DNA from: Lingula anatina
Taxonomy: Eukaryota; Animalia; Brachiopoda
DNA length: 64,000 nt
Assembly: GCA_051362555.1 (NCBI GenBank)
Contig: CM120647.1
Span: 5,642,001 to 5,706,000, forward strand
Direction: 5' to 3'
Position numbers and translations under genes: made by a program. Shown piece after piece: positions 22,804 through 64,000 of this stretch. The notes under the pieces were generated by a model that ran no database searches, was not told the origin of the DNA, and was given only the letters and a program-made list of their open reading frames with translations. The stretch's first letter is position 1; every line of letters begins with the position of its first letter.

Positions 22804-22858
<55 letters not shown>

Positions 22859-23611: not shown

Positions 23612-23880
23612 ACGCCATAATCGTTTCTGAATTTAGTATTCAGCGAAAAGTGATAATGTTTTACTTAATGCATCTTTGTTTTGAGCTGTTAGCGTCAGCG
23701 ACGATTAACAGATTAATTGCTATAATCGTTTCTGAATAAAGTATTTAGCGAGAAGTGATAATGTTAAGCTTATTGCATCTCTGATTTGAGCTGTTAGAGT
23801 CAGCAACGATAAACAGAATAATCGCCATAATCGTTTCTGAATAAAGTATTCAGCGAGAAGTGATAATGTTTTACTTAAAG
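23612..23880. repeat. ~105-bp tandem repeat, about 2.5 copies
   Basis: ATAATCGTTTCTGAAT..AGTATT.AGCGA.AAGTGATAATGTT occurs three times, with a further diverged piece at ~24250-24305. Confidence 0.8.
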
Positions 23881-26188: not shown

Positions 26189-26230
<42 letters not shown>

Positions 26231-26549: not shown

Positions 26550-26632
26550 CGTGCTTAAATGTTGGATCCGACTGTTTTTCCTGTTTTGTGCACTGAAATA
26601 CACAAATTGCCAAAATGGAGCGTTGCTTATCC

Positions 26633-26638
26633 TTTATA
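26633..26638 (-). promoter_or_regulatory. Candidate TATA box of gene A
   Basis: TATAAA(GG) on the minus strand ~85 nt upstream of the ATG, with a TCAGT Inr-like motif at 26596-26592. Confidence 0.45.
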
Positions 26639-33636: not shown

Positions 33637-33699
33637 TTTCGTAACAAAAATTAAAATAACAACAAGTCTTAAAATTTCCCGGCAGATATAACCTTGACC

Positions 33700-34100
33700 T
33701 TCCTTTAGGTTCAGTTCTCCCTTTACGAAAGAGCTCCATTGAAAACAACGGACAGTCAACGTGACTTTACCGGTTGGTGCTTGTATGAATTTTATACATT
33801 TTGATTCACTGGGTTATGGATCTCCCTTTACAATTCAGACAGCTATTGTGAAATCCAGAGACATTTATTCTGGAGATACAGAGACTACGTAGGAATGTTT
33901 AATTGAAAGAGACAGACCGACTCAATGATGCTGTAGTGTAGATCTACTTCGACTTATCAGTCTAATGTAAGTACACGTGTTTAGCTCGTAAGTATACCGA
34001 GTATATAAGTGCTATTAACCGATTACAGTGACGTCATATTTGCTCCGTAACACTCGTCCAGCGGCCATTCTGGAGGGAAAGAACGACGGGGAATAGTAGC
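33700..34100. promoter_or_regulatory. Putative RDM1 promoter region
   Basis: CpG-enriched relative to the flanks, with a TGACGTCA (CRE) palindrome at 34029-34036, just upstream of the RDM1 ATG. Confidence 0.35.
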
Positions 34101-35554: not shown

Positions 35555-35585
<31 letters not shown>

Positions 35586-37022
35586 GATAACCAAGATTTA
35601 TTTGCACCCAATCATTCAGTGTGGCTTGGTGGGAAAATTTCAGATCAATTTCCTAAATGTAAATTAACAAAAAAAGGTAACAATAGTTATTTTTATTCAT
35701 ATTGTAACTTGCATCATAATACAGTAGGAAAACACAGAATTCAACATTTTTCAAATTCATTGTAAGTTCATTCAATTAAATGGTACCTGAGCTAGAATAC
35801 ATACTTAAAAAACAGATTTACTCTTAACACTACACTAAATCTAAAATCAAGCCACTAACTTCCAAATACACATGACACAGGTAATTGATTTAATTGGCCC
35901 AGCTGAGCTGTGTACATTGTACTGTAGCCTTGACACTAATTGACAATAATGCTAACCAGGTATTAAAGAGGTAGATGACAGCAGATAAAATCCAAAGAGC
36001 ACCATAACTGATAACAAATTACACCCAAGGCAATAAGTGAGTCTTCATAATGAAAGTCAAAACCCTGCCTGGGTATTTCCACACGTTTTTACAACACACT
36101 CTCCACCAAGACTTTTTGGGCACTACTAATAAGCAGTGTACGTGCGCTCATATCTTATACACCTCGGTCATTGGTTTTCTACTTTTTTTTCTTTTATGGT
36201 AAAGGCTGCAGAGCTGGGTCTTCATTCTTTGCTGTAAAATAAATTACTTTTATCCTTTACTTGTCCGATGAGTCTTGATTCAAAGCCACTCCTCAGTCTC
36301 TCCTCCGTTTACGGTTTTCGTCCCTACACCTTGGATTGTTACCACTGCAGGCAGTCTGTGAACGCTTGTTAAGTTATTTATCTTCTCTCTATCATATACC
36401 CTGCAGTAATTCATCATTTTACTCGGTTTAATATCAAAGAAAACACAGAAATTAAATGCTAAATTGTACATGTAGACATGATCATGCGCAGCAGACGATT
36501 CCGGTCTCCCTCCAGTATGGCTGCCGTTTGTTTTGATGACGAGGGCTACAATGGGTTAATACAGTATTGGCACTAGTACTATCCCCCCCTCCTCGTACTG
36601 TATCCTAGCAGAGTTCTTGATAAGTCAGTAATTACAATGCAATACACGTTTCAGTCCAAGTCTTTTGGGTACACGGATTTCCCTGAAGTTCCATTTTATA
36701 AATTTTATAATTTTTTTTCAATTATTTATTCTATCTGCACTGAATAATTATTAAGCATTTCTATTTATATATTTTTAATTTACTTTTACTTTTGTTTGTT
36801 ATTTTTTTACACGTTTTATTGTGATAACTCATATCACAGTTATAAAGAATTCATTAGTTCTGTTTATTGACATATTACATGTAATTATGAATAAGTATTC
36901 TTGGTTTTAAAATCAAAGATTGTGCATAAAAATTCTACAATTTTGTTCTTGTAAATTCTCATTTAATTATTATAGTACGTAGTATATTGATGACTGCACA
37001 ATAATATTTAGCCGTACAATAG

Positions 37023-43153
<6,131 letters not shown>

Positions 43154-43428
43154 AACAGTAATTATAGCTTGGAAACTGAGTAGCATATATACATATGACC
43201 CTGCATTTGGGAACGAGGATATCTGCATCATACATCATGAAATTTGTCCTGAAATAGAAGGGTAAATACAACTTGGAAATTGATAAGCATTTAAATTAAG
43301 CCTGTTCCCTGGCTTAGTTGACTAGGATTTCTACAAGAGTGCTGAATATTACACTGATCCTGATAGGGTAAGATGTGCCCACATGACCATGTAACCTTGG
43401 TAATTAAGTTCTTAGCCAGGGAACCCAA

Positions 43429-43475
<47 letters not shown>

Positions 43476-43814
43476 TTTTATTTTTATTTTATTATTTTTT
43501 TTGTGAAATTGGGGCCTGGAGTTGGGGTTGACACATATACTTTTAACTGAATTTATTCATTGTCTGGAACAAATTCTATGGAACAGATTTTTTGCTTGGT
43601 ATTAGCTGAAAGTAACATCTCTTTACTCAAATCTTAGAACATTAAAATTAAAAATGAATTTCCCTATCCCTAAGTGCAACTGGTGTTAGCTGTTATAGTA
43701 TCAATATTATTATTATGATAATTGTAATTATATTGATTATTTTCTTTTTTGGTGAGTTTGGAGATGAAAGAGGCAACCTTGAGCTTTGAAATCTCCACCT
43801 CACAGAGATTTTTA

Positions 43815-44268
43815 TGTACAGACACAGATGTGTCTGTACATATAGCCGTCAACTGTGTCTGTGGTCGCCATCATTTCGTCATTGCTGTCATCGTACACTT
43901 TCACCAATAACACTATAAGTTGAAAACCATTTTACCTTCTGGCTTGAAACTTACAGAACTGATGAATATTCAATATACGCAGGTAAAGTTTGAAAATCAG
44001 CATGATGGGGCCATTTTTTCCATAGTTATGCTGTTTTTTCACTTATTTCAGCATTTATGCAACACAGTTAAAAGATAAAGGGAAAACCGTCACCTGTGTT
44101 TGTCGTCGCTGTCGTTTCGTCATTGCTGTCATCGTACACTTTCACCAGTCACACTATAAGTGGAAAACCATTTTACCCTTTGGCTTAAAACTTACAGAAC
44201 GGATAAATATCCATAATGTGGAGGACAAGTTCGAAAATCAGCATGATCAGGCTATTATTTAATAAGTT
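43815..44268. mobile_element. Inverted copies of the HINE-like element
   Basis: Palindrome TGTACAGACACAGATGTGTCTGTACA followed by two copies of GTCGT..TCGTCATTGCTGTCATCGTACACTTTC...GAAAATCAGCATGAT. Confidence 0.6.
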
Positions 44269-44269
44269 A

Positions 44270-45110
44270 GCCATCCTTGCATACAGGGGTAACAGACTCT
44301 GTAAGTTCAGTGTGAACTAACTCAAATGGTACCTTAGCACGACTATCAGCCACTCTGCTAAAGTGCTGTGTCTTCTTACCCATTGTACACACTTCACAAT
44401 CACTAAACTGCCTATCAGTAATTTTCATGTCCTTAACTACTGATTCGAGTTTCTCAATATCTTTAACATTACAGTGGCAAAAAAACTCTTCTAAGCTGTG
44501 CTTGCCCTCTGAATCAACAATGACAAAGTACAAATAATATAGCTGACCATGTTTCTCAATGTCAAAGAGTTCCATTTGTCGCGACATCCTTTCTCAGTAG
44601 CTGCTTGCACTGAAAAAATGTTCTGTTTGTAACTCGGGATGTTTAAAGCATTGTCTGCATTCCTATCAGCAGTGGTCATGATCAGTGACACATTCACTTT
44701 CCCTCTTCCTTGGGCTATGCCATTGGTCCAAGTTTCATCGGCCAATTAAATAAAGTGCTTGTCCTGGTCAAAGTTTTTGTTCTATGAATGTTGATTTGCC
44801 CGTCTCTATGTGTGACGTGGCCCCACAGTCCACAAGAAAACTAACATCTGGTGTTTGACAGGTTTTCTGTTATTCTGAATACAAAGTTACAATTTTCCTC
44901 TGAATTTTATACATTGTTTATTACCTTGGCATGATGTGTTCCATGTGCTTTGTTTCTCTGCTTTGACTCATCAGCCCTGCATTCATACGATTTATGTCCC
45001 CTTTTATTGCATGTCCAACAAATCACATCCTTTCGATCCTTTCATTTTACATTAGGTGATGAACTCCACACTTTCATTACAGTCTCTTTCTCTTCAGGCT
45101 CACCTGGGTC
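44270..45110 (-). mobile_element. Degenerate Copia (Ty1) gag-protease-preintegrase fragment
   Basis: CWTCNKRGHKSYEC (CCHC), FLVDCGATSHI (protease) and HCN...CEVCTMGK...PFELVHT (GAG-pre-integrase/integrase start), in Copia order with frameshifts. Confidence 0.88.
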
Positions 45111-45239
45111 ATCTTCTGATTCTCTGTTAGCTGACTTTGTTTACTTGGACATTTGCTTTTAAAATTATCTAGCCTTTTACACAAGTGACATCTTTTTCCT
45201 TCTGCAGGGCACTGGGCTGTGCGGCTGTGTCAATGCCCA

Positions 45240-45440
45240 CACTGTCCACATTCAAACTAAAAATGTCACATCCTTTTTGTCCAACCCATATCATCAAGTA
45301 ATTGCACCGATCTTCTTCAGCAGTCTTCTTCACTGGGCCCCCAAACATAAATCGGCGTGCTGGCAAAAGCCCTTCTATGCGGTTATCAAGTTGTCTGCCT
45401 CCCAGTCCATTTCCGGTGCATTCCCGGCCAAACTTGCCAT
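45240..45440 (-). mobile_element. Gypsy gag N-terminal fragment
   Basis: PEMDWEADNL...MFGGPVKKTAEEDRCNYLMIWVGQKGCDIF resembles metazoan Gypsy gag starts. Confidence 0.6.
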
Positions 45441-45522
45441 ATTTCAATTCTTTGAAATAAGAACGTCTCAAAACTAGAAAGATCAAATTCTGTAAAATTT
45501 TAGTTTTGTTGGTCTCTCGCAG

Positions 45523-45705
45523 TCAACACAGTCCACACGTCTCACACACTCGAGCAGTCTGTGCACTGGGTAAAAAAGGAATCCCGTGGCCTACATGAGC
45601 AGTAACAGATTTATGGGGTTTCTTGAAAGACGGCATATGCTCTTCTGTTGTTTGGGTACCAAACACTTCATTAAAGCTTCGGTAATGACCATCATCACTT
45701 ATCAA
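45523..45705 (-). mobile_element. Fragment of a probable DNA-transposon protein
   Basis: DGHYRSFNEVFGTQTTEEHMPS...PFLPSAQTAR..C..C looks like a recurrent transposon-associated motif. Superfamily uncertain. Confidence 0.35.
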
Positions 45706-47465
45706 GAATCAAACATTTTTGTAAAATACAGACATGAATGAAACATAAGTTTTAGTTTAAAATTTTATACACAAAAATTCCAGTTTCTTTAAGCCAGCTT
45801 TTTTCAACATCTCCCTCACTTTATTAAACAAAATGTGTTTATTGTTCATTACTTTGGGGTCTCCTGCATAGGCATCCGGGAGAGACAACTTGCGGTTAGC
45901 TGCAAGCAACACTTTGAGTTTTCTTACTGAGCCAGGTACGGCGTCATCAGTTTTGGTTTCAGGACTAGAATGAGGGCCAAAAGTAGATCTCTATTCATTT
46001 GCAGATGCAATTTCAAATCTAATGTAGTGTCCGAAATGGTGTACAGTCTCACATATCTTCATATTTAACATCACAAGATCCCCTGTCTCTGTTTTGTTCC
46101 TGCTTAATTGTAGCAGACACACTGCAATCCCTCAGTTTTTCTGGAAATGTCCATTGCGTACCCACAGGAATGGATCCATTTTTTATCCCATTATATAACT
46201 CCCATGATGGTACAGACCTCTGAAAAACCATCAAAGATATTTCACGGTAAGATGACTTTCAGTCCATGGCGTATTTGGACAGATTTTTAAAAGTGATTGT
46301 CTTTGATTTCACTCTAGTTAATATTTAAATGCATCTAAACTGAATCTGTCTGATCTTTCCCAGACTCCTAGTGATTGTCACGTATAATTCATGAATAAAG
46401 ATTGTGTGATGATCCTCTCCTTACGTTCACGCACTGTGCTAGGCAAGTGTCTCTTTGCATGAATAATTGAATCTCCTAATGGAAAAAAACTGGTTTTAAC
46501 ATGAAATCCTTATAGTTCTTATGCAGTCTTCTTTGCAATTCTTTGCATATTAGTGAAAAAATGTAAAAATAACCAAAAGGGAATTACTTTTTTTTCTTTT
46601 TCAGGACAGGAATCTGCCTACAACCTGATTACAATTATCATATTGATAATGAAACTTAACTCAAAACAACAATATCTTCCAAATATTTGGGCTTTTTAGT
46701 CGCCTCTTTGGTCTCACAGCTTCCTCCTCAGCTACAACTGCCTGATCACTTTCCTTTTCCTCTTCTTGGAATTGAACATCCTACGGTTCTTGTTTAACAG
46801 TTTCAGATTGATCAATCTCTAATGTTTTTCCTGACAGGATCTCATCTTTTCTGTTCTTGGGTCTGAATTCTGCTGATTTTGTTGCACTTTCTGGAATTTC
46901 TGGAATTGAATAACGTCGTCTGCTTTGTTTATGACACTGTTGCAGAGTTTAAATTGGCTAGCATATCTGCACACTGTTCTTCCATCTGTTATTCTTCAGC
47001 CAGTTATATGGTGTTATGCCTTCGAGGCCGAGTGCCATATGAAGGTACAAATAACAATGTACTTACTGGTGTCCTAGAGTCAATGGTGAGCAAAGACAGA
47101 TCATCAAACATCAACGAGAAGCCCAAAGAAGAGACCCCAAAGAGCCAAGAGCACAGACCACAAGAGCCAAAAAGACCGCAAAGAAGCCTCAAAAGAGACC
47201 GATTTATTTCAAGTCACACCTTATATACATGTTCAGATAGTATACGTTTACCAATCAGAACCAATTATACAGTGAACAGTTTTACCTTTAAGTTACCAAT
47301 CACGGGAAAGATTCAAACTTGCGCACCGGACTGTACTTTACTTATAGAGACATCTACCGGCAGCAATTTAAAACAATCTCAACTAACGCAATACATCGTC
47401 ACACTGGGAATCTTTTATTTCTGAATAGTCAAGTTTTATCCTTACTGCTTTTCCCCATAGTGCAT

Positions 47466-48030
47466 TGTAAGGTGCTAGTCCTGCGGCGTTTATAGCATGG
47501 CAACAATGACAAAGATGATTAGTTTTCCAAAAGTTTATTCAGTTCAGTTGTGGCATATAAAGTCATTTAACGGCCTGACGGTGGCATAATAAGGTATATA
47601 AAAAGAAGGCATATGTAATAAGATGGCATGTATAAGGCCCCTGAAAAAGTACAAAGAGTATATTTTAATAAGGCCTATTTCACAAAGCTACATACATACT
47701 GAAACTGAATGCGAGACAAATATCGGTATCATAAGACAACTATTAGTACTTTCGCTGTCACAACAAGATAGCGCTTGTATTTTCTTATATAATGTTATCT
47801 TTTATAATAAATAACTCTGAATATGATACATTATAAGTAAATACTAACCCTGACAGACAACTTCGGACAAAGCCTAGAGCACACAACCTCACACCACACA
47901 CGTGCCTCTTCGTCTCTGCACACACAGTGAATGAATACTAATACAAAGTCAAATTCACCACTTGACTTCCGGAGTTACTGGAAGTTACATAAACTGCTAA
48001 ATATTCATGAGTGGCTTGTCACTTGTCACA
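47466..48030 (-). mobile_element. LTR-like repeat, copy 1
   Basis: TG...CA bounded. About 535 bp closely match 55421-55958 in the same orientation. Confidence 0.75.
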
Positions 48031-48760
48031 CAATCCTTCTCTCTCTTTCAGACAGTAAGAGAGTTGCCCCTCTCTTCTCTTTGTCGGTGCTTTTCTGCTT
48101 TAGTGTTGAGAGACCTTTAATTGTCTCAGAAGCGGTCATTTGGAACTCTGCTTCCTGATTTATAAATTCTTGTAGGCTCAGCACACTCTTCGCATCGTTT
48201 TTCATTCACCCATCGGTAGTACTTGGTCAGTAGTGCTTCATCTAGCTTGCGTTGGATGTTGATATAGAGGGAGCCACCTCCTAGCTCACTCTTCTGTCCA
48301 GCTTCCATTATGTTCACTACTATTGAGTCCAATAGCTCAGCTAACAGTTCTATGTCTCTAGGGTGGTTGTCTCGGACTTGTCTGAATCTGTCCAATTCTT
48401 CCAATCTCAAGGTGATTTGTCTACGTTTTCCACCACACTTTCTTTCTAATCTCTCCATTGCTACGTTGTAAGCTGTAGCTGAATAACCAAGGTTCTCGAC
48501 AACTTTTAATGCTTCACCTTGAAGGCTGTTATGTAATCGTAGGAGCTTGTAGTCTGGAGTGAAGGTAGTGCGATCCACACACGTCAGGAATGCTACTTTC
48601 CAGCCCTCGTATGTTTTCTTATCACCATTAAACTTAGGAATATGTTCCCTTTCTAGAAGCCTTGATGAGTCAAAACTGACTGCCTCTTCTGTGCTTGAGT
48701 CTTGGACACGTCTGATTCTTCTTTACTCAAGTTCTTACTGACCTTACACATCTGCTTAGG
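48031..48760 (-). mobile_element. BEL/Pao gag fragment (DUF1759-like)
   Basis: IPKFNGDKKTYEGWKVAF..CVD.....YKLLRLHNSLQGEALKVVENLG...Y..AMERLERK.GG. Confidence 0.85.
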
Positions 48761-49213
48761 ACTAGAGGTTGACCTGGTTAACATGAGGTCATTCATGATC
48801 TTTTCCAGATCTCTGTAACACTTCTAATTCAGCAGTAGTGGCTGCAATTTTATCTACTTCTCTCCACCTGTCCATGTGGTTAAGTAGTTCATCACAACTT
48901 ATTACATACTGTTCAAAAACCAATGTTCTTGAAATTTCTGCCTGATTATAGTTTTTTCTATCTTTTGGGACATATTTTGTATCCAGTTTTCAAACTCACT
49001 CGCTGCAGCTACAAAGGCTGTTCTGGCCAGCATCTTCTTTGTTTTCAAACTCATGGTCAATTTAGACTGGCTGTCTACTGTAGTACCTTTTAAAACTTAT
49101 GATGTTCTTTAAAAAGTTCAACCTAGCTCTGCTTCCAAACAATGTTCCGGATTTATCCTCCGGTGCGGTAAAAATTAAAGCACATGTGTTAATATTCTTC
49201 CTTTGTTCTATCA

Positions 49214-50975
49214 CAGTGTTCTCAATAATTTTTTTAAAATCCGAGTCCATGGGACTCACATGTTTGACAAAATGTGAGTCCCATGTAAATTTTCCGAGTC
49301 CTTCTCTTGAAGAAGAAAAAAAAATAAGTACCATTTAGAATTGCACAAATGTGTTTATTGAAATACATGTGACAGGTCAAAATTATGTAAAAATATAGCA
49401 AAATAAAAATATAACATCTTACAAAACATCTTTTTAAAAATAAAATTCTGCAGACTCATTGTACCAGGACTAGTCTACTAGAGAACGAAACTCAGTAAGT
49501 TTCTGTCAAATAAAACCAGTACTTTTCTGTTTTAGAAATATTGACTTTAAAACTACTTTGAATGCTTCCAAGATGGCAACAACAGCCTGTTCCAGGGAGA
49601 GCCAGCGAACAGCCAAAGGTTGCTTCAGTGTGAGAAACTGGTCATCTTCCATCAGATCATATACAGCTCGGAGTCTGTTGTATCTTACCGCAGAATTTTG
49701 GAAGAACTGGTAGACTGCATTGACTGTTTCTTGGTAGGATTTAATTTGTTCCACTGAAGCCGCAGCTTGACCCACTGCTAAGGCCAGTTTGTGAGCCAGA
49801 CAATGAATATGTACAAGATATGGATTTCTGCCCTTTAACTGTACTCCCACACCTGTTCGCCGGCCAGTCATCACAGCAGCTCCATCACTACCCAGACCCA
49901 TGACTTTAGAAGCTGAAATGTTGTATCCTTCCATCCACTGTTCAATTGCAGCCACAATTGTATCAGCTTTCCCATCTGGGACATTCAGGTTGGCAGAGAA
50001 AGAAGTTCTGGCTTTTCCACCTACAACAGTCTGGACATAAATAATCAATTTTTTAAAAATTGCAATGTCGCAACTTTCATCCACTTGAATGCCTATGTAT
50101 TTACTTTTCTCTATGGGATTTTTCATGTCATCCTCAATAGTATCTGACAGACACTGAACCATTTCATTTACCACTCCAGCTGACGTATAGTGTCCCTTCA
50201 TTGACTGAAGTAGGCAAAGGTCCGGGTAGAGATTTAGAGCCAAGTTATGAGATACCAAAAAGTACACAGTTTTCATCTGATGACCGAGGTTGTCATCTGT
50301 TTTTTGTTCTGCTGTGGATATAGCCCGCTGTAGAGCTGACTGGCCCTTAAGAGTAGAAGCCGCTTGCTTATGTTGTTCGGACTGCACGTGTCGAACAAGT
50401 GTAGATCTCTGGTAATCACTGCATCCCGGATCAGTTGTAAAAACGTTACTCTTCTTGGCACGTTTACAAATGGAGCAAAACATAAAGTTGTCCGTGACAT
50501 AAAGCCAGTCTTTAAAACTGGGATCTTCCAGCCAGGTTTTGTTGAAAGTCCGGATCTTTTTTTTAGCATGGGACTGCGCCATTTTGAGACATTACAACCA
50601 CCTGCATTCGGCACACCTCGGTCTTTTTCGTCAGGGATAACCTCGGCCGTAATGAGCGCCATTTTGCTTATTGCGTCATTCGGTAGATGGCGCACTAAGT
50701 GACGTGACAGGCCCAGCAAACTACCAAACACGGTGTGTTTTTGTAAATTAATACGCTAGTTTCACCAATCACATCACTCATTCTGTATAATTTCCGTGGT
50801 CACTAAGATAATCATCCCTTTCAGTTGTTGTTTTTTTTATCTCTCCCACTAATCACCCGCCTAAACAGGACCGCATTTTTTTTCGTCCCTGGGACGAAAG
50901 GGTGTTGATTATTTTACGTCCTTTTTAATTTCATTGCGTTTTTTACATATTGGGACGCCGTAAATGAGAACACTG
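49214..50975 (-). mobile_element. Internally deleted hAT element (ZNF862-like transposase, ORF 49506-50582) with TIRs and 5-bp TSD
   Basis: TIRs CAGTGTTCTCA / TGAGAACACTG with TATCA on both flanks. The ORF has a TTF-type Zn finger (F...W....WL...MFCSIC...H..S..H) plus DESCD, GSDGAAVM.G, HCLAHKLAL and VRWLS. No C-terminal dimerisation domain. Confidence 0.92.
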
Positions 50976-51083
50976 TATCATATTTCTGTTTTATTCCCAC
51001 AATACATTAAAAAAGTTCCTGTAACAACAGGTGTTTCACTTTAACTGTCACAGAGTAGGCAATGTCTTTCAAACAAACTCAAA

Positions 51084-52110
51084 TCATGAGAGGGTAAAGT
51101 TTTTAGTGTTTTTCTCTAGAACATGGTGTAATGACACCCAGACGTCTGACCCTTTCCTGAACACGAAGACAAAGTGTAAGTGTATTCTGCATAGCTCCCT
51201 GAGAATTTCTTGAAGAAGGCTGGGTGGACTAAAGAACGATTGCTGATCATCAATCAGTGCATGTATCTTCTGCTTGTTCTTTGTATCCTTCTTGTTGTGG
51301 AGAATAGCTGGGACTACTTTAGCACATGATTTTCCTCCATGGAAATCTTCACATACTTTGGAACATGCTGTACTCACCGACTCCTCCCCACCATGATCTG
51401 GTCTGGGACTTGGGTGCATGGCAGAGGTATGTCTATCACTATCACACTGTGCGCATCTGACTTCTACCACACAACTGCCCCATGTATGTCCTGGTTTACA
51501 TGGTGTAGTGTTTCTTCACACACTGTCTGCATCAGCCTGGGTTGTGGCATTCTTGGCCACGATGTGATTTGTTCGAACAATTAAAGCACAGGCTTCTAGC
51601 TTTAGCAAATTCTCTTCTTTCTTCAGTTGTCTTGTTATGAAACTGTGTGCACTTTGATATGGTATGGTTTTCCTGGAATAAACAACAACTTTCAGACTAA
51701 GTGCACTTGATTTGCAGGGCTAGGCTTCTTTTGGTAAGCTGAAACAGTAGATGTATTACTTGCAGTATTATGCACTATGGCCTTTTTTCTTGGAGGATCT
51801 ACTTGAAGGCAATTTTTTTACGGTATATGTCATAATCTTCACCTCTCTCTGTACAAAGTCAACAAGTGTCTCAAAGGTCACCTTTAAACCTTTTTTCTTC
51901 TTGAAAGCATGCGTCCTCCATCTGACTTGCATTGGTGGCAGCAATTTGTGTGCAAGCTTCTTAATATTCTCTGGGTATTTGAGTATGGCGACTGTAGCAA
52001 TTGATCCCTCCACATAATAGCATTCTTGTAAGAAAATCCCATAATTGTCTTAAGCAGATATATTGCCTGGCTTTATATTGGACCACTGTGTTACCCTTTT
52101 TGCCAATCAA
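51084..52110 (-). mobile_element. BEL/Pao gag zinc-knuckle and protease-start fragment
   Basis: KLLPPMQVRW...FETLVDFVQRE, CCLF..NHT...C, C.QC.S.RH..AMH and SCAKVVPA...HALIDDQ. Confidence 0.75.
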
Positions 52111-52452
52111 AAACTAGCTGCTCAAATGAATACGCCATTTGTGTCTCGCACAATTAAATGTTTGTGTCTCGCACAAGTATCTGGTTTGTACAGTCTCTGC
52201 ACTTCTGACACCATGTGATATAAACGAAATGTGTCATGCCGCCATGCTGGAGCTCACATGTGCGTCTTTATTCATGTCGCTTATGTCAAACTCAAATAAT
52301 ACAAGGTCGCTTATATCAAATATGTTACACAAACTAGATCTTTTGCCAACTTAACTGATATTGATTATGAAGCTAAAGCATTATTAGTATGTGAAGATTA
52401 AACAGAATTCTGTACTGAGCGTACTTGGTCCACGTATCATCAGGCACCCATC

Positions 52453-52920
52453 TTTCTTTAATAGCCTTCATGGCGCCAGTGTTGGTAACATTAGGTGGCC
52501 ACAGAACCTCATCGTCCACCACCCAGTGGGAAGGAATAACCTCCTCTACCTCCTCACTGTTCTCCTCCCAAATAACTCTACTCCACATCTGTAATAAACA
52601 GCAAAAGTTTTCTTTAATAGCCTTCATGGTGCCAGTGTTGGTAACATTAGGTGGCCACAGAACCTCATCGTCCACCACCCAGTTGGAAGGAATCACCTCC
52701 TCTACCTCCTCACTGTTCTCCTCCCAAATAACTCTACTCCACATCTGTAATAAACAGCAAAGGTTTTCTTTAATAGCCTTCATGGCGCCAGTGTTGGTAA
52801 CATTAGGTGGCCACAGAACCTCATCGTCCACCACCCAGTTGGAAGGAATCACCTCTTCTACCTCCTCACTGTTCTCCTCCCAAATAACTCTACTCCACAT
52901 CTGTAATAAACAGCAAAAGT
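52453..52920 (-). repeat. 156-bp tandem repeat (3 copies) of an acceptor plus exon start from a probable DNA-transposon accessory gene
   Basis: Period 156 nt (52561, 52717, 52873). Each unit is TGTTTATTACAG|ATG then MWSRVIWEENSEEVEEVIPSNW......WPP. Confidence 0.85.
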
Positions 52921-53109
52921 CTTATCTACATGCAGACCATTATTCTTGTTAAAGATTTGTTTTAACATTAAAATCTGATGCTGTAAATTTTATAAAAAAA
53001 CTTTTTTTGCAAACTCAATCCACTAGAGGTAAAAGAGTGAGAGTAGAAGGCAACTAGGTATCAGAAAAACAATAAAGAAAGTGAATCATAACACACACAA
53101 GACACTGTA

Positions 53110-53470
53110 TGACCATGTAATACATCTAAAGCCTCTTCAATTCTTGGCAGAGGGTATGCATCATGATGTGTTTTTGCATTAAGTTCCCTATAACAACACA
53201 CATTTGAAGTCACCTGTTTTCCTACATACCAATACAATTGGAGCAGCATAACGACTATGTGAGTCTCTGATAATACCTCTTTCCTTCCATTGCTTTAAAT
53301 ACTGTCTCGATTCTTCCCAATGCTGAGGAGGAACTCTTCTATATGGAATACGGACTGGTACATCGTCTTTGGTTCTTATGTTATGTTTCACTTTCCGGCA
53401 TAAACCAATTTCATCATCATGCTTGCTAAAAACAGTATCATATTTTACAATTAAGTCAATCAGCAGTCTT
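53110..53470 (-). mobile_element. Gypsy reverse transcriptase N-terminal fragment
   Basis: KHNIRTKDDVPVRIPYRRVP...GIIRDSHSRYAAPIVLV and YRELNAKTHHDAYPLPRIEEALD. Confidence 0.9.
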
Positions 53471-54229
53471 TTACTTTCCTCAACAAGTTGTAATGAACCT
53501 TTTACATATGCCTATGATGAATGTCCTGAACTTATATAATTTTGAACGCTTAATTCAAGCGTGGGCTCGAAATAGGACATTACGTTTTCGTCTAACTTAG
53601 TGGATAACGCAATCCAAAGATTCCCCGGTTCGTGTCAGATTTACGTATGGTAGCGCAAAGAAAACCCAAGTCCACATAATGACCAGTTAAATGATTTATT
53701 CGTTGACGCTAGGTAACTACATGATATTCTAAGTGAAGTCCCCAACTCCTAACTCGTCAGCTCCGTACTCTGTCGCTTCCAATCTCCTCCTCCGCTGCTT
53801 CCTTCTACATCACTCCAGTATATCTCTCCGTATCCCTCTCCCCGTTCAATTCTCATCACTTACTTTAAATACTATTTTGTTATCTTTACATGGATCCAGT
53901 GCTGCACTAGTATGAGATGTACGTCAAACATAATTACCTTTAATTGTATAATAAATTTCTTTACTCCGGCGTCATACATAGAGACCGCCGCATTACTCAA
54001 AAACTATTGCACTATAACACATTACGTCATACGACTTCATATGATCTTTATGTCGGACCCGACATAACCCATTTAAAAATCCTGAATTTGTGGACAGTTT
54101 CTAAGTAAATGTTCTTCTGAGCCACACTTAAAAAATTTCTTCACCTCAGATTATCTACCATATCGGTTGCTGTGTCGGCCTCTACCTCTACTTTGACCTC
54201 TACCTCTTACTTCTCTTAATTACCATGTC

Positions 54230-55958
54230 ACGCTGACCTCGAAATTGCCCTCTCATTAACTCATTTATTTGTTGCTGTTGCTGCAAAAGTTGTTTAGATT
54301 GCTGAGCTATTTGTTTATTTTGTTCTTGGACTAATTTTAAAATTTCATTATTTTGTACAGCAGACTCTTGGAGAGTACCTGTTTCTGTCTGACTCTGATC
54401 ACTCCTACCAACCCAGTCAATTGCTCTATCTCTAAGATCAAAAAAATGACAACCTTGGTTGTTCTAAATTTAGTCTTCTTAACTCCCTTTTTAAACTGTT
54501 GTCTCTAACACATTCCGCAAATCTACCTTTCAGTGTATTATTTCTGTCAACCAAGAATTCTTCCCTGATAACACAAAGTTCAACCAATTTTAGTGAACAT
54601 GACAGCAGATCTTCTTAACTACCTTGTTTGTACTCATAAAAACGTTGCTGAAGAACAGGCAGTATGTCGCCATCCCCAAAAACTTCGAAAATTTTCTCTG
54701 GGTTTGTGCTAATTTCTATCCCTCTACCAATTATTTCTTTCCTAGCTTTACCAGCTAAATGACTAACAATGAAAGCGGCAGCTTCTTCCCTATCTTTAAA
54801 TTTTCTGGTATTGAGGTGAGCTTTTATATCTTGTACCCATTCTTTTATTTCTACATCATCAGGAGATGAAGGCTTATCTTTAAAACATGCTATTCTTCTT
54901 GAGGGGAGATATACTGGTAACATGTTTGATCAGTAAAACCTTCAGACCTTAACTCTTTTTTAATTTCTGACTTTAGTTTTTCTTTACTCTCTGCCATTTT
55001 TATTCAACCCAACTAACAACATGCAATATTCTAACTCAGTTGACTGATGTAATGTTAAACTAAACTAAACAAAACAAAACTAAACTATAACATATAATAC
55101 TACTACAACTGATAAACAATGAGAACATATACAATATTTACAATACATTTATTCACTGAGGTTGCTGAAGTTGCTGACCCTATCCTGAAACCATAGAGTT
55201 CACTTGCCCTGTACTGAATTCACATAGATCACTGGCTCTGATTCACTGGCTCAATGACATCACTAGCCCTGAACTGAATTCACGCAGGTCACTGGCTCTG
55301 GTTCACTGGCTCAAGGATGGGCGGGTGGGCTAACTACATGTATGCCTTAAATATGCCATGTGCCATACTATCCTACCCTGCTCGCAGCGCCAAATGTAAC
55401 CGAGTGTTTTTATATTTTCATAGCATGGCAACAATGACAAAGATTATTAGTTTTTCAAAAGTTTATTCAAATCAATTGTGGCATATAAAGTCATTTAACG
55501 GCCTGACGGTGGCATAATAAGGTATATAAAAAGAAGGCATATGTAAGAAGATGGCATACATAAGGCCCCTGAAAAAGTACAAAGAGTATATTTTAATAAG
55601 ACCTATTTCACAAAGCTACATACATACTGAAACTGAACCGCGAGACAAATATCAGTATCATCAGACAACTACTAGTACTTACGCTGTCACAAAAGATAGC
55701 GCTTGTATTTTCTTACATAATGTTATCTTTTATAATGAATAACTCTGAATATGATACATTATAAGTAAATACTAACCCTGACTGACAACTTCGGACAACG
55801 CCTAGAGCACACAACCGCACACAACACACGTGCGTCTTGGTCTCTGCACACACAGTGAATGAATACTAATACAAGGTCAAATTCACCACGTGACTTCCGG
55901 AGTTACCGGAAGTTACATAAACTGCTAAATATTCATGAGTGTCTTGTCACTTGTCACA
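54230..55958 (-). mobile_element. 5' part of a Gypsy element: LTR (55958-55395), PBS, leader and gag
   Basis: LTR TGTGAC...TTACA, then TGGCGCTGCGAGCAGG at 55392-55377 (complementary to a tRNA-Ser-like 3' end). Gag ORF ...EWVQDIKAHL...FIVSHLAGKARKEI at 54615-54923. Confidence 0.8.
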
Positions 55959-57789
55959 TAAACTTAACTGTCTTTCTAGAAGCAACACCAACTTGTGAAT
56001 AGGGTGTTCTAGTATGGTGACTTGAGATAAGGGTATGCCCTTTGTAGAGAGAGCGCAGTGTTACCAACTTGAACCTTAAAGGGATAATAACTCTTCCTAT
56101 GAGGTCTATATTTCACAATAAAAACATTGTGAATAACTCATAGAAATAAAATATATTCTGTTTTACGACAAAAACAGCAGTTATAGCTATTATTCTGATA
56201 TCTGAGCTTGTCTTCAGACCACGTGACCTGCATAGATGGCTATACTCTGTTATAATCTCTTAAAAGATTTTAACAAAAAAAAAAAAAAAACTTTTTAGTA
56301 AAAAACCGGGGACTAACTTTGAATGTAAAAATGGATTCATTAAGCATTGGTAAGTATAGGAAAATTGTTGTTTACTCCAGGAAAATTCATTTTTTGGCCA
56401 AAACGAAGAGTTATTATCCCTTAAACTCTGTGGACTAGGGAATCAATCTACAAAACAAAACAAAAAAAAAAAAAAAAAAAAAACGCTTTCTGCAAGTGCT
56501 GAGAATATCTTCCACCAGGTAATAGTTTATACAATCAACTACCACACAAAAATTCAAAGACTATAAATCTATTGTAAATACCTCTTTCATTTAGAATTCT
56601 GAAATATGAAAATGGAAATATTAAATAAATAATGAAAAAATTATTTGGCTTTCTTACTCAATTTTTAATATTTCTTTTAGTATCAGTTGATCACTTTCTA
56701 ATCTATATAGTAATTATCAGTCTTACAATAAGTTTTCAAATGAAATTACAACATTTTCACATTACTTATTTAAAATAATAGCACAAGTTTGTGCTGCAAG
56801 TTTTATTACCTTTTATCCTCTGCTTCCTCATCTGGAGTTATTATTGATGTCCTGTTGGTGTTTGTGAAGTTTACAGGCTCAAGCTCATCATCACCACTAC
56901 TCTCTTCTGTTTCTTGGCAATCATTCTAAAGAGATGGACATTTATTTTCTCATCTCGTTATTTAACACTCTTCTAAACAATTCTGAATCATGAAAATTAA
57001 TTAGTCTTTGGCAGAAAAATGTGCTAAATTCAAATGAACTTGAGTGGACTAGGACGTAAGCGTAACAATACATACAAGAAACTTGGATTTTGATTGGCTG
57101 TTTTCGATGCGACGGGTCGCTGGACAATGTTGTATTTCAATATAATCGATGACAATGGATTTTCCGCCAGGAGAATTATTTTTTCCCCATCGAAAAGATT
57201 GAAGAATTACCATACTTAAATATGACTTCGGAGACCTTTAACCTTGATCAATCTATGGCAGCTTTGGCAGGTGTTATACTCTGCTGTTCCATCATCATAT
57301 TCCTTGAGCGGGAAATTTTTTGGGATTGGCCGAATATAAATTCGACCAGAGGTTACTATCTTCAGGAGATCACACTCACAAAATTCTGATATAAAAACTT
57401 CAAGTTTGGTCCTGGAACCCTCACCATTTTTGAGCAGCTCAATGCTGCCGATTCCAGCTAATTTTGAAAATGTGCTGAATAAGATAATAATAAAAATTAC
57501 TGAATTCCTTAGAACAGAATTGAGGTCCATTGTCACTAATGACAGTAGATGGTATTCCATATCTGGAGAAATGTCATTTTAAATACTTAATAACACTCTT
57601 GGAAGAGGTGTCTGTGAGTTTATCACATTCCCAGAATGAATCCAATGTAGTAATCCACAGAAATCAAAAAGTCATGATTCTCCACAGTGAAAAGGTCAAG
57701 ACCTAATTTTTCATAAGGTGCTTGAGGATCAATGGGAGTAAGAGTTATATATATATATTTACACACAATTATAACTAATAAATAAATAA

Positions 57790-57900
57790 AAAACAAGAGA
57801 CATGTAATAACCCCTACTCGTAAGTTTCACGGGCATACCCAGAAGGTATGCCCGATCGTTAGGAGATTTATTTGAAAATAGTTTTTTAGCTGTTTATGTG
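57790..57900 (+). repeat. Dispersed repeat terminus with hairpin GGGCATACC-CAGAA-GGTATGCCC
   Basis: Near-identical copy at ~61920-62025. It starts AACAAG after an A-rich tract, like a Helentron-type end. Confidence 0.7.
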
Positions 57901-58424
57901 GATGGCGTGATGACATTTACGTCACGTGCTGGTCCAGCCTGGGCGAAAACAGATCTGGGCCAGATGACCATTTTTAGCTGGGATATGGATTGCACGAACA
58001 TGGGGCTGCTTGTGGATTCTTTTTAGATAGATGAATAATTAAGATGTTGAATCTAATGTGTTATTTACGTCAATTGATGCCGCAGATCCTGTTGTTTATA
58101 AAAAAAAAAATCAACCTAAATTGAATTTGATACTACTACGGACGACTGATTGACTGGCTGTTTTTCCAGCTGTTTTCACAGAGTATTTCTACCGACAGTG
58201 TCTAAAAGTGATTCAGTGGAATCTTAACACCCTATATATTCCTCTGCAGTATGTTAAACTTGAAAGAAATAAGCGTAAATCTATTAAATTCGATACGTTT
58301 CTTACCTACGTGTAATCACTGATTCATACGTAGTGCCGTATGACTTATGACTTGTCCTTGAGAAAAACTACGCACAAAGTGATGACGTCGCACATTAAAC
58401 GTCGTATGGAAGGCCTTGCCAAAA

Positions 58425-59020
58425 CTTTCTATTGTGTCAGCAACCAACAAATCTTTCCCTTTCTTGTATACCAGTCTGATGCGGTATGGTTGCAGCTGTA
58501 GTAGCATTCGTTGCAGTCTTACTGGTGCACTTGGTAGTGGCTTTTTCCGTATGGAGATCAGTGGTTATTGGTCAGTTTCAATGGTTATGCCCTTGCCATA
58601 TATATATTCTCGGAATTTTGCGCATGCAAAAACTACTGCAAGAAGTTCCTTCTCAATTTGGGCATAGCGTTTCTCTGCGTCTGACATTGCTCTGGATGCA
58701 TATGCCACTGGTTTCCCATTCTGTAGACATGCAGCTCCTAAGCCTGCTTGTGAAGCATCACAGGTCAGTGTGACTTCCTTGGAAGCATCATAGTATGCTA
58801 AACAGGAATCCCGACTTATCTCCTGCTCAATTGCTTCTAAGGCTGTGTCATGTGCATGGTTCCAAACAAAGGAGTTATCGTTGCGTAGAAGTTCATTAAG
58901 TGGTGCGCACTTCTCACTAAGCAGTGGAATGAACTTGGACAGGTATTTGGCCATACCTAGAAAACGTAACAACTCTGTCTTGTCTCTGGGTTTGGGCATC
59001 TCCTGGATTGCTCTGACCTT
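58425..59020 (-). mobile_element. Gypsy RT connection/RNase H fragment
   Basis: RFLGMAKYLSKFIP, LTCDASQAGLGACL.Q.GKPVAYASR, YAQIEKELLAVVF and RLQRMLLQLQPY...YKKGK...ADT. Confidence 0.92.
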
Positions 59021-59779
59021 CATCATTATAAAAGTATACTCAACACCATATTTTAGAATAGTACAGGGAAAACTTAACCAATGCATCATACATGAATTTG
59101 TAATAGTAAATTTAATAAGTGCAGAGGCAAGATGTCAAAAGATCAGTACATTCCATGTTTTGTGATTTCTAGGATATAAACATTACTACTACAGTGAACT
59201 TCAAGTCACAAATGTATTATAATGTTGCATAAAACTCTCAACAACTTTAAAACTTTAACATGCATAAATGTTATTGAAGTTAAAAACTAAAAGTTATCAG
59301 ACTTTGTAAATGACTGTCTTTACTGACACCAAAGTTATCAGTCAGTAATATTCAACAAAATACAATCACAAAGTGTAAAAAATGAAGTAAAATAAGCCAT
59401 CTATGCGCAAGACATTTCCCGTGTAGGTAAACAAACGTAAACAAAAAATGCATACAGCCATTGCAATCTTGCAAGAACATCTACCGCAATCACTATACAA
59501 ACATTACTGTTGCTTGCTATGCCTGTAGTAACACACCCCTCCAAAATCTATCTGAGATTTTTAACAACGCAAACTAATGCAAATTTCAAGTAACACAAAC
59601 TGAAAACACATGATAGCACTTCTAACAAAAATTAAAGAATTAGTTAAAATCTACAATTTTACACAATGCAATGTGTTACTCACTATGATTCTAATACGCA
59701 GTAACCTTGCAAAGAGTGCATTACCTGCACAATTGAAACATCAAATTAAATGTAATATCTAAAAGTTATTTATTTCCAG

Positions 59780-61625
59780 TGTAAACTTCACTGTCTTTCT
59801 AGAAGCAACACCAACTTGTGAATAGGGTATTTCAGTATCACTAAGCACAGATTTACTTGATATCCACACAGGCAATATCATTGATGTTGCCCGAGGCTTG
59901 TCAGAGGCACAACATATGGAAATGGCAGATACAGGTTGATCCCCTTGGCCTCACTTTTGGTCTAAATATAGTAGGGAGGGATGAGATCCCTTGCATTTAG
60001 AGCATGTGGCACGTCTCCTACACTCTTTCGAGATGTGACCTCTTCTTAAACATCCAAAACAAAGTTTATTGTCTCTAACAAATTTCTTCTTTTCTTCCAT
60101 GCTCTTGGCATCAAACTGTGAACATTTGTGGATAGAATGTAAACCATCACAAAAATGCATGGAGGGTACTGCTCTGAGGAATTGTTTGAGCTTGTAGTGA
60201 ATGAGTGACTTAATTTTTCAGCAGGCTTGCTGTTCTTAGGATCTTGAAGGTTACCAAAGATGGGGTGATTAAGAATCCTTGCTTGCTCTTCTACGAACTA
60301 ACAATGTCACTGAATTTTACCACCCTTTCAAGCGTTTCTGAGATGTAGTCTGCTTGGGTTCTCCATTTTTTCCACAAGTCGCTAGGGGGCTTATTTATCA
60401 ATAATTTCAACGTTTCAGGATTTTCTATGCAATGGGAATACCCAATCTCCTTTAACGTATTCTGACAAGAGGTCAGCGACATGGAGAACCTTCTCAGGGC
60501 TGCTGAGTCCTCAACCTTGACAACAGGAATGTTGTTGAGTTTATCTACCGTCTAGCTATTAAAAAACAAAACTACTGGTACGCGTTTGATCGATAACTGA
60601 TTTAATTCTCGTAAGATTACCATCCGCCCCCTTCCTTATGAATAGGTATTACTTTATTAATACAATGCAACCGACGTGTAGCCGCACGTTAGAAGACAAT
60701 GTGTGATTACGCACAGCAGTATGAGGCCGCTACCCCTTCCCAGCAAGGAGTCAACTAAGCCGCAAGTTTGAAGACAATGCGTGATTACTCACAGCAGTAG
60801 GAGGCCGCTACCGCTCCCCAGCAAGGAGTCAACACAGCAGCGCGTAACCCGGGCTTAATTAGGGGTTATTGGCTGTCCACTTATGATCGGTATTGTTCGT
60901 CTTGATTGCAGCACACTTCCTACTCACTATTGGTTCGCCCGCCTCTTCTTTAAATGCTCTCTCAAACCTTTCCTCAGTCAGCCCAGAATGGAAACACATT
61001 TATCTGCCGATAAACTACGTCGTTGATGTATTATTCGGCATCATTCTACAGTGGGTCATAAGGCTCTATCTATGATTTTTTTCGTATCGCATTTTACCAG
61101 ATTAAGCTGACGCTAGAAAACTAAATTTAATGAATAATTTTCTCACGTGCACGTATCCAGCTAATTTTACGACAATAACTACCATGGCACCTCCGCCATT
61201 TGCAATTGTAGACGAACCACGTTTCCAGCTGATAGGCCAATACAACTATACCAGACCCATTGCACGAGAAAAGACCGTTTATATTTAATGAATTAAAAAC
61301 ATTTGAGGATCGCGATTTTCTATTGATATACTATCGATGGTATCCCTGTATTAATGCTGTAGCAATTTTAAAATCCTGACCATTCCTTTTCTTCAAAAGT
61401 TTGCGAGCCTCTAGGTAACCATCTTCAGAATTCATGGCACTACAACTCTTCATCAACTCCTGCACTTCACCTCTTGTATATTGAACCAAGTAGTATAATC
61501 TGGTATTTGCATTTTGGGTTTTTGTTTCAATAAGGTTCTCAAAGGCTCGAATGAATTCACTATACTTTAATGGATTTCCATAAAAAAAATCGGCATTTCC
61601 ATAATTGTAAGTGTAAGGGCCGTCA
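59780..61625 (-). mobile_element. BEL/Pao gag fragment split by an ~800-bp insertion (60552-61353)
   Basis: [18 protein letters not shown]...[11 protein letters not shown], continuing GQDFKIATA | VDKL across the insert, then KLCFGCLRRGHISKEC...CSKC...HPSLL. Confidence 0.88.
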
Positions 61626-62519
61626 ACACCTGAGTAATATGCTCATCAGAGGGCACATTTCCTCAGCAGTAGTAGGTAATGTAACTGAGGTAGTTGCTGT
61701 GAATGCATGAGTAGCTGGGGCAGCTGTAACAGTCGAGGCAAGTGGAACAGCAGGAAAAAGGGGAGTACTCGTAACATGTGTATCAATTGAAAGGGGCACT
61801 GGTATGGGAGTAACTGGGCTGGCTCCCACCCTGGCAGCTGAGTTTTCTGAAATTGGAGTACTCATACTGAAATGCAAAGCATATATATATACAATTAAAA
61901 TAAATAAATAAATAAATAAAAAACAAGAGACATGTAATAACCCGACTTCGAGTTTCACGGGCATACCCAGAAGGTATGCCTGATCGGCAGGAGGTTTATT
62001 TGAAAATAGTTTTTTAGTTGTTATCTGCTATCATTCTTTCTCCATTGCTAAAATCAGTAGGGTCCCTTTTCAGGACACCACTAAGATCTGTGAAAACTTC
62101 TTGATATTTGCTCCATAAGGTACAGATACTGTCCTTAATAATTTGAATCTCCTCAACCTCCTTTAAGTCACAACAGTTAAAGTTCATAAGTTCAGTATCT
62201 ATGTGGGCACTTAACTTGTCTAACTTGGTTGTAAATGGACTAATCTTTCTATTTAAGTTTCACAGTCAAGAACAACAAGAGATCTCCTCGGTAAGACCCT
62301 TTATTCATTCTGTCTATTCTGCTGGAAGTCCAGCTTTTATATATTCTGTACAAGGAAATATTTTGAATCTTAATTGTAACTTTCTCTTAACATGTATTGT
62401 TGTCAAACATTAGTATTCCGAATCTTAATTGTAACTTTCTCTTAACATGTATTGTTGTCAAACATTAATTATGCATAAGGTCACATGTATAGGACTACGT
62501 AATAAGGTGCATGATAGGG

Positions 62520-63044
62520 CTTCCCCGGCGAGTTAGGTTTCGAGCCTCGAAACTATTATATTAACTTTAAAAAAAATTGTGGTCAATAATCTCCGTTAAA
62601 ATAGAGTCCATTCCTACTGAACACAATTCAATGCACTACACTCCAATGTGATTTATGACAAATACAATCAAGTACAACAAGATATTATATGATACAATGC
62701 AGTAATTATCATTCAACACATTACACTACGATACAATACACTATGAAAGACTATTAGATGATAGCTACTATCATAATATGTGACTAATTTATATCTAGAT
62801 CAATACAAAGGAGGATCCCGAGACTGCTGGATTACAAAAAATTAAATATATATCTGGTACACACAATACACGTGGATCGAACGGTTAGAATCATATTTTG
62901 TGGATAGGTATGTAATGAATGTAGCCATGGTGTAGGGCTACCAAATGGGTATCAAACCGTTTTTGGGTGATGTTTTTTAAGCTCCACTGAGGGATCCTCC
63001 TTTGTATTGATCTAGATATAAATAAACCTAACTCGCCGGGGAAG
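62520..63044. mobile_element. Non-autonomous TIR element with interrupted left TIR
   Basis: CTTCCCCGGCGAGTTAGGTTT is perfectly inverted at 63024-63044. A second 33-bp arm at 62787-62819 pairs with 62991-63023. Confidence 0.8.
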
Positions 63045-63109
63045 GAATCAAAGTCGGGGGGCAACACAGGATCTGGGTGGAAAGGTTTCTAGCACGTCAA
63101 CTCAGGGTT

Positions 63110-63565
63110 TGGAATTTTCCTCGAGTACACAAATCGTAGCAATAGGCCTTCTCAACTCATGTTTAGAGGTCTTAACAACCATTCTTTCCATCTGTCTAGT
63201 ATGTCTGCTGGTAATGGTTCATCCCATGGATGTTTCTTCATCCATAATTCTTGTTGCATCATCTTGGCTAGGGTAATGAATGGAGATATGTAACCACAAG
63301 GGTCAAATATGGAAGCCATTGTGCTAACCATTCCCCCCTTGGTCAATATCGGATCTTTCAGCTTGCATTGAAATGTGAAGGTGTCGAGCTTAAGCTTCCA
63401 GTTAATGCCTAGAGTGCATTGCCGAGGGGCTGTTTCTGCTCTGTCTAAGTCTAGGCTCTGGATTGCCGTCTCAGTGCTGTCCATTGCAGCCAATACATCT
63501 GATTTGTTGGAGAGCCACTTGTGAAGTCTGAACCCACCTCTCTGTAGCAGATTTACCAATTCCTT
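63110..63565 (-). mobile_element. BEL/Pao pol fragment (RT end / Peptidase_A17 region)
   Basis: GGFRLHKWLSN, TLGINW, SIFDPCGYISPF...K..MQ.LW....WDEPLP...W..W, fused to an integrase-end-like RPIATICVL. Confidence 0.9.
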
Positions 63566-64000
63566 GTGTTATGTCTTGTGCTTGTTTGCAAACCATGTGC
63601 ACTCTGTGTGGGTTATAGATTACTATATCTTTATACTCATCACTCAAGACCATGTGGACTGCCATCTTACTATCCTTTATTTCCTAAAGAGCCCTTGCCA
63701 CTAGTGTCGCCACTAGACAAGACATTAGACCTTGGATAATTTGATTGCTTGTGGTGCACTGTCTGTATTCCTGCGCAGCGTGTGCATCGTGTCCTTGGAC
63801 ATGGGTTAAATCTTCTTTGTTGGGGTTGTCCTCTGGGTCGCTGTGATGGACCTCTATATTGCCTGGTTTCTCTGCGGAATTGGGGTTTCCTACCACTGGC
63901 ACCCTTGACTACATGGACTGTTGTACTGGTCTCTCTTTGTTCTAATATAGTTTTGGATTCTATCTTTTGTTCGTGGAGATGTCAAGTCTTCTTTCCACAA

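Follow-up and report, generated by a model that had tools for sequence, protein, structure and literature searches.

Downstream of the gene VCPKMT (METTL21D) in the brachiopod Lingula anatina, within a 64-kb stretch of contig CM120647.1 (the window; ~37% GC), lies a stack of transposable element (TE) remnants in which every remnant that our searches assigned to a transposon family faces the minus strand, opposite to the gene. The stack, which we refer to as the array, starts at 44,270 and takes up the last 19,731 bases of the window. This one-way transposon archive is real and well supported, and it is a good candidate, unproven, for a uni-strand cluster giving rise to PIWI-interacting RNAs (piRNAs). 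The reading that we favour, with some reserve, is that the array is a candidate one-strand piRNA source locus. A long plus-strand transcript would cross the stack and be cut into piRNAs antisense to Gypsy, BEL/Pao, Copia and hAT families, and it would begin either by read-through from VCPKMT or at a promoter near 43.2-44.3 kb, two starts that we regard as about equally probable.

Orientation of the transposon remnants

We used Pfam, tblastn and profile searches to examine the orientation of the remnants, and all three agree with an earlier reading of the window (the original prediction), which had described a patchwork of ~20 kb of unrelated TE remnants, all on minus and none on plus. The Pfam scan covered all stop-to-stop open reading frames (ORFs) of at least 45 aa right of 43,000. 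On the minus strand 7 of 79 ORFs matched transposon families, four of them above the curated cut-off, and on the plus strand 1 of 103 gave a nominal match (RVP, 22.2 bits against a cut-off of 20.7). We rejected the latter, as it falls on a three-copy 156-bp tandem, no stretch of which passes alone, and disappears when stops are read through. That read-through scan, made for the plus strand only, found no transposon family in 15 frame pieces of 44,001-64,000. The tblastn and profile scans were symmetric for strand. Searching with 156 BEL/Pao and Gypsy relatives, tblastn gave nine clusters, every one of them on minus and to the right of 45 kb, while tiled profile hidden Markov models gave five BEL and four Gypsy clusters, again all minus (two overlap at 57.5 kb), with none on plus and none in a reversed-window control. 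The noise level can be judged from single-query searches, in which the reversed control reaches E 0.008. Two plus-strand matches were rejected, one at 60.9 kb (E 0.16, permissive settings) and one at 58.7-59.0 kb, where the query ORF runs antisense to the Gypsy anchor of its own locus (L077). The latter query belongs to a set of ORFs taken from 78 Gypsy loci of metagenomes, which are for the most part single elements 2-10 kb long; a BEL query found no relative in the metagenomes.

Collinear pieces were lumped by their position on full-length reference polyproteins so as to count independent insertions. This leaves nine insertions with sequence support, comprising four BEL/Pao, three Gypsy, one Copia and one hAT, and all nine are minus; the original prediction, which listed Copia, at least three Gypsy and at least four BEL/Pao pieces and a hAT element, is confirmed, with the Copia and Gypsy-2 assignments resting on weak scores. 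The two-sided chance of such uniformity at this locus is 0.0039 with nine insertions, or 0.0005 with 12. The original prediction had tallied ~13 remnants and put the chance at about 2 x 0.5^10 if 10 of them were independent, allowing that some pieces may belong to one element. Five stretches, at 45.8-46.3, 52.4-52.9, 54.2-54.9, 57.2-57.4 and 63.7-64.0 kb, defied family assignment with every tool and contribute nothing to the nine.

The array also differs from its surroundings in density. Among 147 ORFs of at least 60 aa, the left 43 kb of the window holds a single TE remnant, a long interspersed nuclear element (LINE) on minus within VCPKMT intron 2, along with two further weak single-query matches (E 0.005 and E 3.6e-4); this amounts to one coding remnant in 43 kb against nine in the 20 kb of the array. 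Dense transposon fragments lying mostly on one strand, as in a uni-strand piRNA cluster, are thus what we find. We conclude that the one-way bias is real for this locus, and that calling it exceptional needs the genome background.

RNA over the array

We used RNA reads to investigate whether the array is transcribed. Nine raw-read runs are available under the species label, all of them long RNA-seq, and seven were mapped: X1, X3, X4 and X7 to 42,200-62,100 at 95%, and X1, X2, X5 and X6 to 31,800-51,700 at 90%. About 6% of each run was sampled (25% of X7); six runs are stranded and X7 is unstranded, and the samples are likely from other individuals. Bins holding unoriented high-copy repeats or VCPKMT were excluded, which removed 6 of the 30 bins of the 42,200-62,100 set (four up to 44,855 and two at 55,480-56,807) and left 11 of 30, from 44,416 on, in the 31,800-51,700 mapping. 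The strand convention was read from few reads, first mates being minus over the VCPKMT exons and plus over a minus-strand exon at ~33.5 kb (X1, X2). Libraries of mRNA under-sample piRNA precursors.

Summed plus/minus depth over the array was 17.2/8.3 in X1, 12.1/3.6 in X3 and 4.1/3.9 in X4 for the 42,200-62,100 mapping, and 16.6/2.7 in X2, 2.5/0.7 in X5 and 9.5/4.9 in X6 for the 31,800-51,700 mapping. Across the six stranded runs plus was ahead in 44 run-bins and minus in 14 (run-bins that are not independent), and the unstranded X7 was even (3.7/3.6). Reads over the intronic LINE were mostly sense in X1 (7.9/1.9) and X2 (6.0/1.2). Within the array, the LTR-like piece (LTR, long terminal repeat) at 53.5-54.1 kb carried mostly minus-strand reads in X1, X3 and X4, and the deepest pile of the 42,200-62,100 mapping stood over a miniature inverted-repeat transposable element (MITE) at 56,076-56,424, with most of its reads continuing into other loci. 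Taken together, the runs weakly support plus-strand transcription over parts of the array, antisense to the transposons, the coverage being sparse, uneven and in part owed to other copies. A 49-to-1 plus excess of pyrimidine-tract/AG matches was not used, since base skew and overlaps between matches had inflated it.

Several observations weigh against the array as a piRNA source. By depth, X4 lacks a plus excess; the run-bins are mutually dependent; and the intronic LINE, our control, is even in X5 (0.95/0.77) and X6 (4.5/5.4). In the stranded runs of the 42,200-62,100 mapping 11 to 14 of 24 bins are empty, so that of the plus-strand transcript that had been predicted the strand lean is seen and a continuous precursor is not. 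Likewise, for a precursor expected to start near 43.2-44.3 kb, the plus excess over the array was found, but the opening array bin (44,416-45,079) has a depth of 0-0.03x in each of the four runs mapped to 31,800-51,700; the VCPKMT exons themselves reach only 0-3.6x, and sensitivity is therefore low. A link from VCPKMT into the array is absent among the joints listed, with 192 further joints outside that listing. The strongest plus pile, at 47.1-47.7 kb, differs from the window by substitutions and by one segment that has been replaced, and so likely stems from another copy or haplotype. The plus strand of the array is not depleted in the polyadenylation-type motif AATAAA, which occurs there 25 times (13.0 +/- 3.2 in 100 shuffles) and 26 times on minus (15.3 in the shuffles). 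In favour of the array as a source, AATAAA is absent from the VCPKMT stop as far as 44,749, but ATTAAA at 43,641 and 43,647 could mark the end of the VCPKMT mRNA. Finally, given 200 equally dense genome windows, at least one all-one-way case has a probability of 0.54 with nine insertions, or 0.09 with 12.

Composition of the array and its setting

Table 1. Features of the array and of the adjoining VCPKMT locus, in window coordinates.
Feature	Position	Strand	Support
Copia-type remnant	44270..45100	-	zf-CCHC_3 E 1.1e-4, Pol_BBD E 6.1e-4, gag_pre-integrs E 0.031; all below curated cut-offs
Gypsy-1 gag remnant	45086..45500	-	Gypsy profile E 1.6e-10; tblastn 45101-45461
ORF remnants without family, not counted	45760..46258	-	lone weak match E 9.4e-4, the protein matched belonging to no Pfam family
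LTR-like copy A	47493..48030	-	93% identity with copy B, which has the same orientation; ~30 nt short at 3' end
BEL/Pao-1 gag remnant	48041..48722	-	DUF1759 E 1.3e-10; 61% to BEL polyproteins
hAT DNA transposon, 361-aa ORF	49214..50975	-	zf-C17orf113 E 3.6e-15, DUF4371 E 6.3e-5
BEL/Pao-2 remnant (gag end, zinc knuckle)	51087..52214	-	BEL profile E 2.8e-8
Three tandem 156-bp copies, not counted	52376..52921		TRF; open on both strands
Gypsy-2 pol remnant (start of reverse transcriptase (RT) region)	53094..53511	-	Gypsy profile E 4.2e-4; tblastn E 1.9e-4
LTR-like piece, not counted	53540..54064	- (orientation inferred)	by eye
LTR-like copy B (55,395-55,958) with primer-site-like motif, leader and broken gag-like ORF	54200..55958	-	LTR pair
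High-copy MITE, unoriented	56076..56424		21-bp terminal inverted repeats, TTAA site
Gypsy-3 pol remnant	57442..59026	-	RT_RNaseH_2 E 3.6e-29; profiles E 1.7e-59 and 2.9e-17
BEL/Pao-3 remnant	59876..61642	-	DUF1759 E 8.7e-4 (61,334-61,642); BEL profile E 3.8e-12
Nested non-coding elements	62520..63044		perfect inverted ends, 21-bp and 33-bp
BEL/Pao-4 pol remnant	63117..63601	-	Peptidase_A17 E 1.3e-14; profile E 1.1e-21
Possible end of a Gypsy gag, merged with Gypsy-3 in the count	63673..63981	-	by eye; no Pfam match
VCPKMT/METTL21D host gene	37053..43153	+	four coding exons 37053-37307, 37785-37973, 42478-42603, 43046-43150
LINE remnant	38350..40466	- (antisense in VCPKMT intron 2)	661-aa ORF with RT; RVT_1 E 3.9e-24, zf-RVT
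High-copy repeat piece, ~160-bp units	43809..44269		self-blastn 73-84%; inverted relative to VCPKMT intron 2 copies; abuts array start

The intervals listed for the array, partly recognised by eye, span 12,747 of its 19,731 bases (65%), and Rfam returned no families. The Copia-type remnant is interrupted by stops and frame changes, with a domain order (zinc knuckle, Pol beta-barrel, GAG-pre-integrase) that we take to fit Copia. The hAT element is still bounded by its two 10-bp terminal inverted repeats and flanked by a target duplication of 5 bp, and a 5-bp duplication is what defines hAT5 (PMC12730594, which like the other articles cited here is drawn on in part); judged by transposase, terminal repeats and duplication it appears hAT5-like, and it is likely internally deleted. 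Ahead of BEL/Pao-2, at 52,200-52,213 on minus, stands an LTR-end and primer-binding-site motif that occurs on the sense strand in 34 of the 78 Gypsy loci and on the opposite strand in none. In its minus frame the 156-bp tandem resembles unnamed eukaryotic clusters (score 0.95, low recognition).

Gypsy-2 also gave Spuma_A9PTase at E 0.044, which was left out of the Pfam count. Lumped with it is the stretch holding copy B, whose gag and primer site were recognised by eye and found no support in Pfam, PDB or the 78-locus comparison. Copies A and B are 93% identical, 7.9 kb apart and in the same orientation. Gypsy-3 comprises an RT/RNase H piece (58,325-59,026) and an integrase piece (57,442-57,742) separated by an insert of ~580 bp, while in BEL/Pao-3 a zinc knuckle (59,876-60,172) is collinear with the DUF1759 piece, the two being counted as a single element.

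Two shorter same-orientation duplicates lie within the array, one of 57 bp and 93% identity (55,959-56,015 and 59,782-59,838) and one of 144 bp and 87% (57755-57894 and 61881-62022), the latter with a hairpin and an A-rich end. By eye we had read the 57-bp duplicate as the end of a BEL pol gene, but a profile of BEL C-termini gave this no support and the idea was dropped. The same profile scored weakly (E 0.001) at 63117-63278, right behind the Peptidase_A17 piece of BEL/Pao-4, which suggests an internally deleted BEL copy.

The candidate read-through source for the array is VCPKMT, whose exons match Lingula anatina protein P0157 at 92-95% identity each (tblastn) and encode a Methyltransf_16 domain (Pfam). 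Exon 1 shares 95% identity with METTL21D/VCPKMT of Lingula anatina, with the runner-up at 67% among the 120 matches listed. The LINE in intron 2 adjoins a 42-nt T-run (38307-38348) that is likely its poly(A) tail; the element (38307-40466) is 5'-truncated, with an open RT ORF, and young in appearance. Also within VCPKMT, a 75-bp unit repeated 2.4 times (94% match) spans the start of exon 3 (42351-42530), possibly providing extra in-frame mini-exons or alternative acceptors.

Between gene and array, most RNA reads over the repeat piece at 43809-44269 continue into unlike sequence. In four runs its family shows 150-580x of strongly one-directional reads in VCPKMT intron 2 (40432-42423), and over the inverted piece at the array border the RNA is on plus. 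This piece could be a source of transcription or a mere common passenger in mRNAs.

Further left, an RDM1-like gene on minus (32063-33813; DSRM_RDM1 E 3.9e-10) lies head to head with VCPKMT, ~3.3 kb apart, and served as a strand control for the RNA reads. Between them minus-strand RNA reaches 7-29x at 35120-36447 in four runs, in a region holding no Pfam-recognised ORF, and may be repeat-derived. Cysteine-rich ORFs occupy the minus strand at 18487-26633, with the chitin-binding domain Peritrophin-A in 26148-26633 (E 1.9e-6) and 20456-20683 (E 0.006); those at 18487-18882 and 24732-25253 look similar by eye. At 5700-10250 a unit of ~700 bp is repeated in tandem about six times (60-94% identity).

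Alternative explanations and known piRNA loci

Another way to view the uniform orientation is as the product of a filter that operates without piRNAs. If the array lay within a long intron, a 3' extension or a non-coding RNA transcribed from plus, sense insertions would be purged as disturbing the transcript. We consider this unlikely. The LINE in VCPKMT intron 2 is likewise antisense to its gene, L1 elements inside human genes reportedly show an antisense bias, and low plus RNA at about the depth of the VCPKMT exons would fit nascent or intronic RNA. However, the filter leaves the step in density and variety unexplained, plus-strand AATAAA has not been purged, and no downstream exon is seen within the window. 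Moreover, ordinary read-through genes in mouse have, in the portion of the study drawn on, about as much sense as antisense TE content within 10 kb downstream (PMC11615739).

An ordinary graveyard, in which elements nested and were deleted again and again at a site that tolerates them, would instead owe its shared orientation to chance or to fewer events than we counted; part of it may even lie inside one Gypsy element bounded by LTR-like copies A and B. That pair, the two shorter same-strand duplicates, tool support for nine events only and sparse RNA partly from other copies all fit such a history, as does the genome-wide chance given above. However, every nested insertion is a separate draw of orientation, the extra minus-facing pieces seen by eye would bring the count to at least 12, at which the chance figures fall to the lower values given, and the reads lean antisense. 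On balance we think the graveyard distinctly improbable. A third possibility is a composite mobile element, whose pieces would have been gathered in sense by Helitron-like capture or by template switching among co-packaged retroelement RNAs and then moved as a unit. Short pieces, many of them gag-proximal and most abutting without visible target duplications, are what it would leave. The hAT and the MITE, however, have ends and target duplications of their own, Pfam scans of array ORFs and plus frames found no Helitron protein, and the RNA runs give no sign of the patchwork as a multi-copy unit, so that we give this explanation hardly any weight.

Those ends and duplications show ordinary transposition to be the origin of the hAT and the MITE at least, which argues against a single composite element. 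The original prediction had described the pieces as mostly lacking target duplications; this was overstated in view of the 5-bp duplication of the hAT and the TTAA site of the MITE, but it does describe most of the pieces. Thus, elements probably entered the stack one after another by ordinary transposition and were later cut down by deletion. Antisense insertions would have been kept and sense ones lost, and deletions would have cut the pieces to 0.3-1.8 kb.

If the array is indeed a piRNA source, its closest relative in layout is the mammalian piC-DoG (piRNA cluster downstream of a gene), in which tens of kb immediately behind a protein-coding gene are densely filled with TE fragments in antisense to that gene (PMC11615739). 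Here too antisense fragments stand right behind the last coding exon, which stops at 43,150, with the nearest remnant reaching 44,270 on the opposite strand. Read-through and piRNAs were demonstrated for piC-DoGs, whereas our array is known from its sequence and thin RNA, and their content is LINE-1 and endogenous retroviruses in a mammal rather than Gypsy, BEL/Pao, Copia and hAT in a brachiopod (PMC11615739).

The original prediction had compared the array with flamenco of Drosophila. Flamenco and flam-like clusters likewise consist of co-oriented LTR-element fragments, and candidates among them were found through strand bias alone (PMC10643416); in 100-kb windows this sequence-only bias predicted real clusters in both of two testable Drosophila candidates (PMC10643416). 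In those clusters, however, the strand bias is exclusively Gypsy-driven and other LTR families are depleted (PMC10643416), whereas here four BEL/Pao, one Copia and one hAT join three Gypsy. The bias is common to all of them, and the array is therefore not flamenco-like in the strict sense: the uni-strand layout fits, the Gypsy-only bias is absent and the piC-DoG layout is closer. Flamenco extends over hundreds of kb, has its own promoter and is expressed in ovarian somatic follicle cells; our array measures at least 20 kb and runs off the window edge.

Among spiralians, the family mix is much like that of molluscan piRNA clusters, in which the enriched families are Gypsy, Kolobok and hAT5 for Lymnaea stagnalis and BEL for class 2 of Crassostrea gigas; those clusters favour young elements, whereas the pieces here are mostly short and decayed (PMC6128900). 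Macrostomum and Capitella have unidirectional piRNA loci of 10-20 kb, defined through small-RNA reads where ours is defined by layout, and the portions of these studies drawn on describe no one-way transposon archive for them (PMC4604429, PMC8915122) and, for Capitella, no locus of flamenco size (PMC8915122). Both PIWI groups are present in every lophotrochozoan phylum surveyed (PMC11114477), which indicates that brachiopods have the piRNA machinery. The literature searched, with subscription papers and supplements outside the search, holds no brachiopod piRNA cluster and, from 2023 on, no invertebrate piRNA cluster formed by read-through downstream of genes; the main text of the Lingula genome paper mentions neither piRNA nor piwi (PMC13121700).

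The kind of locus is thus already known, and the surprise is moderate. A more specific proposal, which we put forward tentatively and regard as doubtful, is that read-through from the housekeeping gene VCPKMT drives a broad-spectrum antisense archive of DNA transposons and three LTR superfamilies, of the piC-DoG kind. If the array is real as a piRNA source, it would provide a named one in a little-studied phylum and a test of cluster-building by read-through outside mammals; and if the read-through proposal is true, gene read-through would be a shared route to piRNA clusters across bilaterians.

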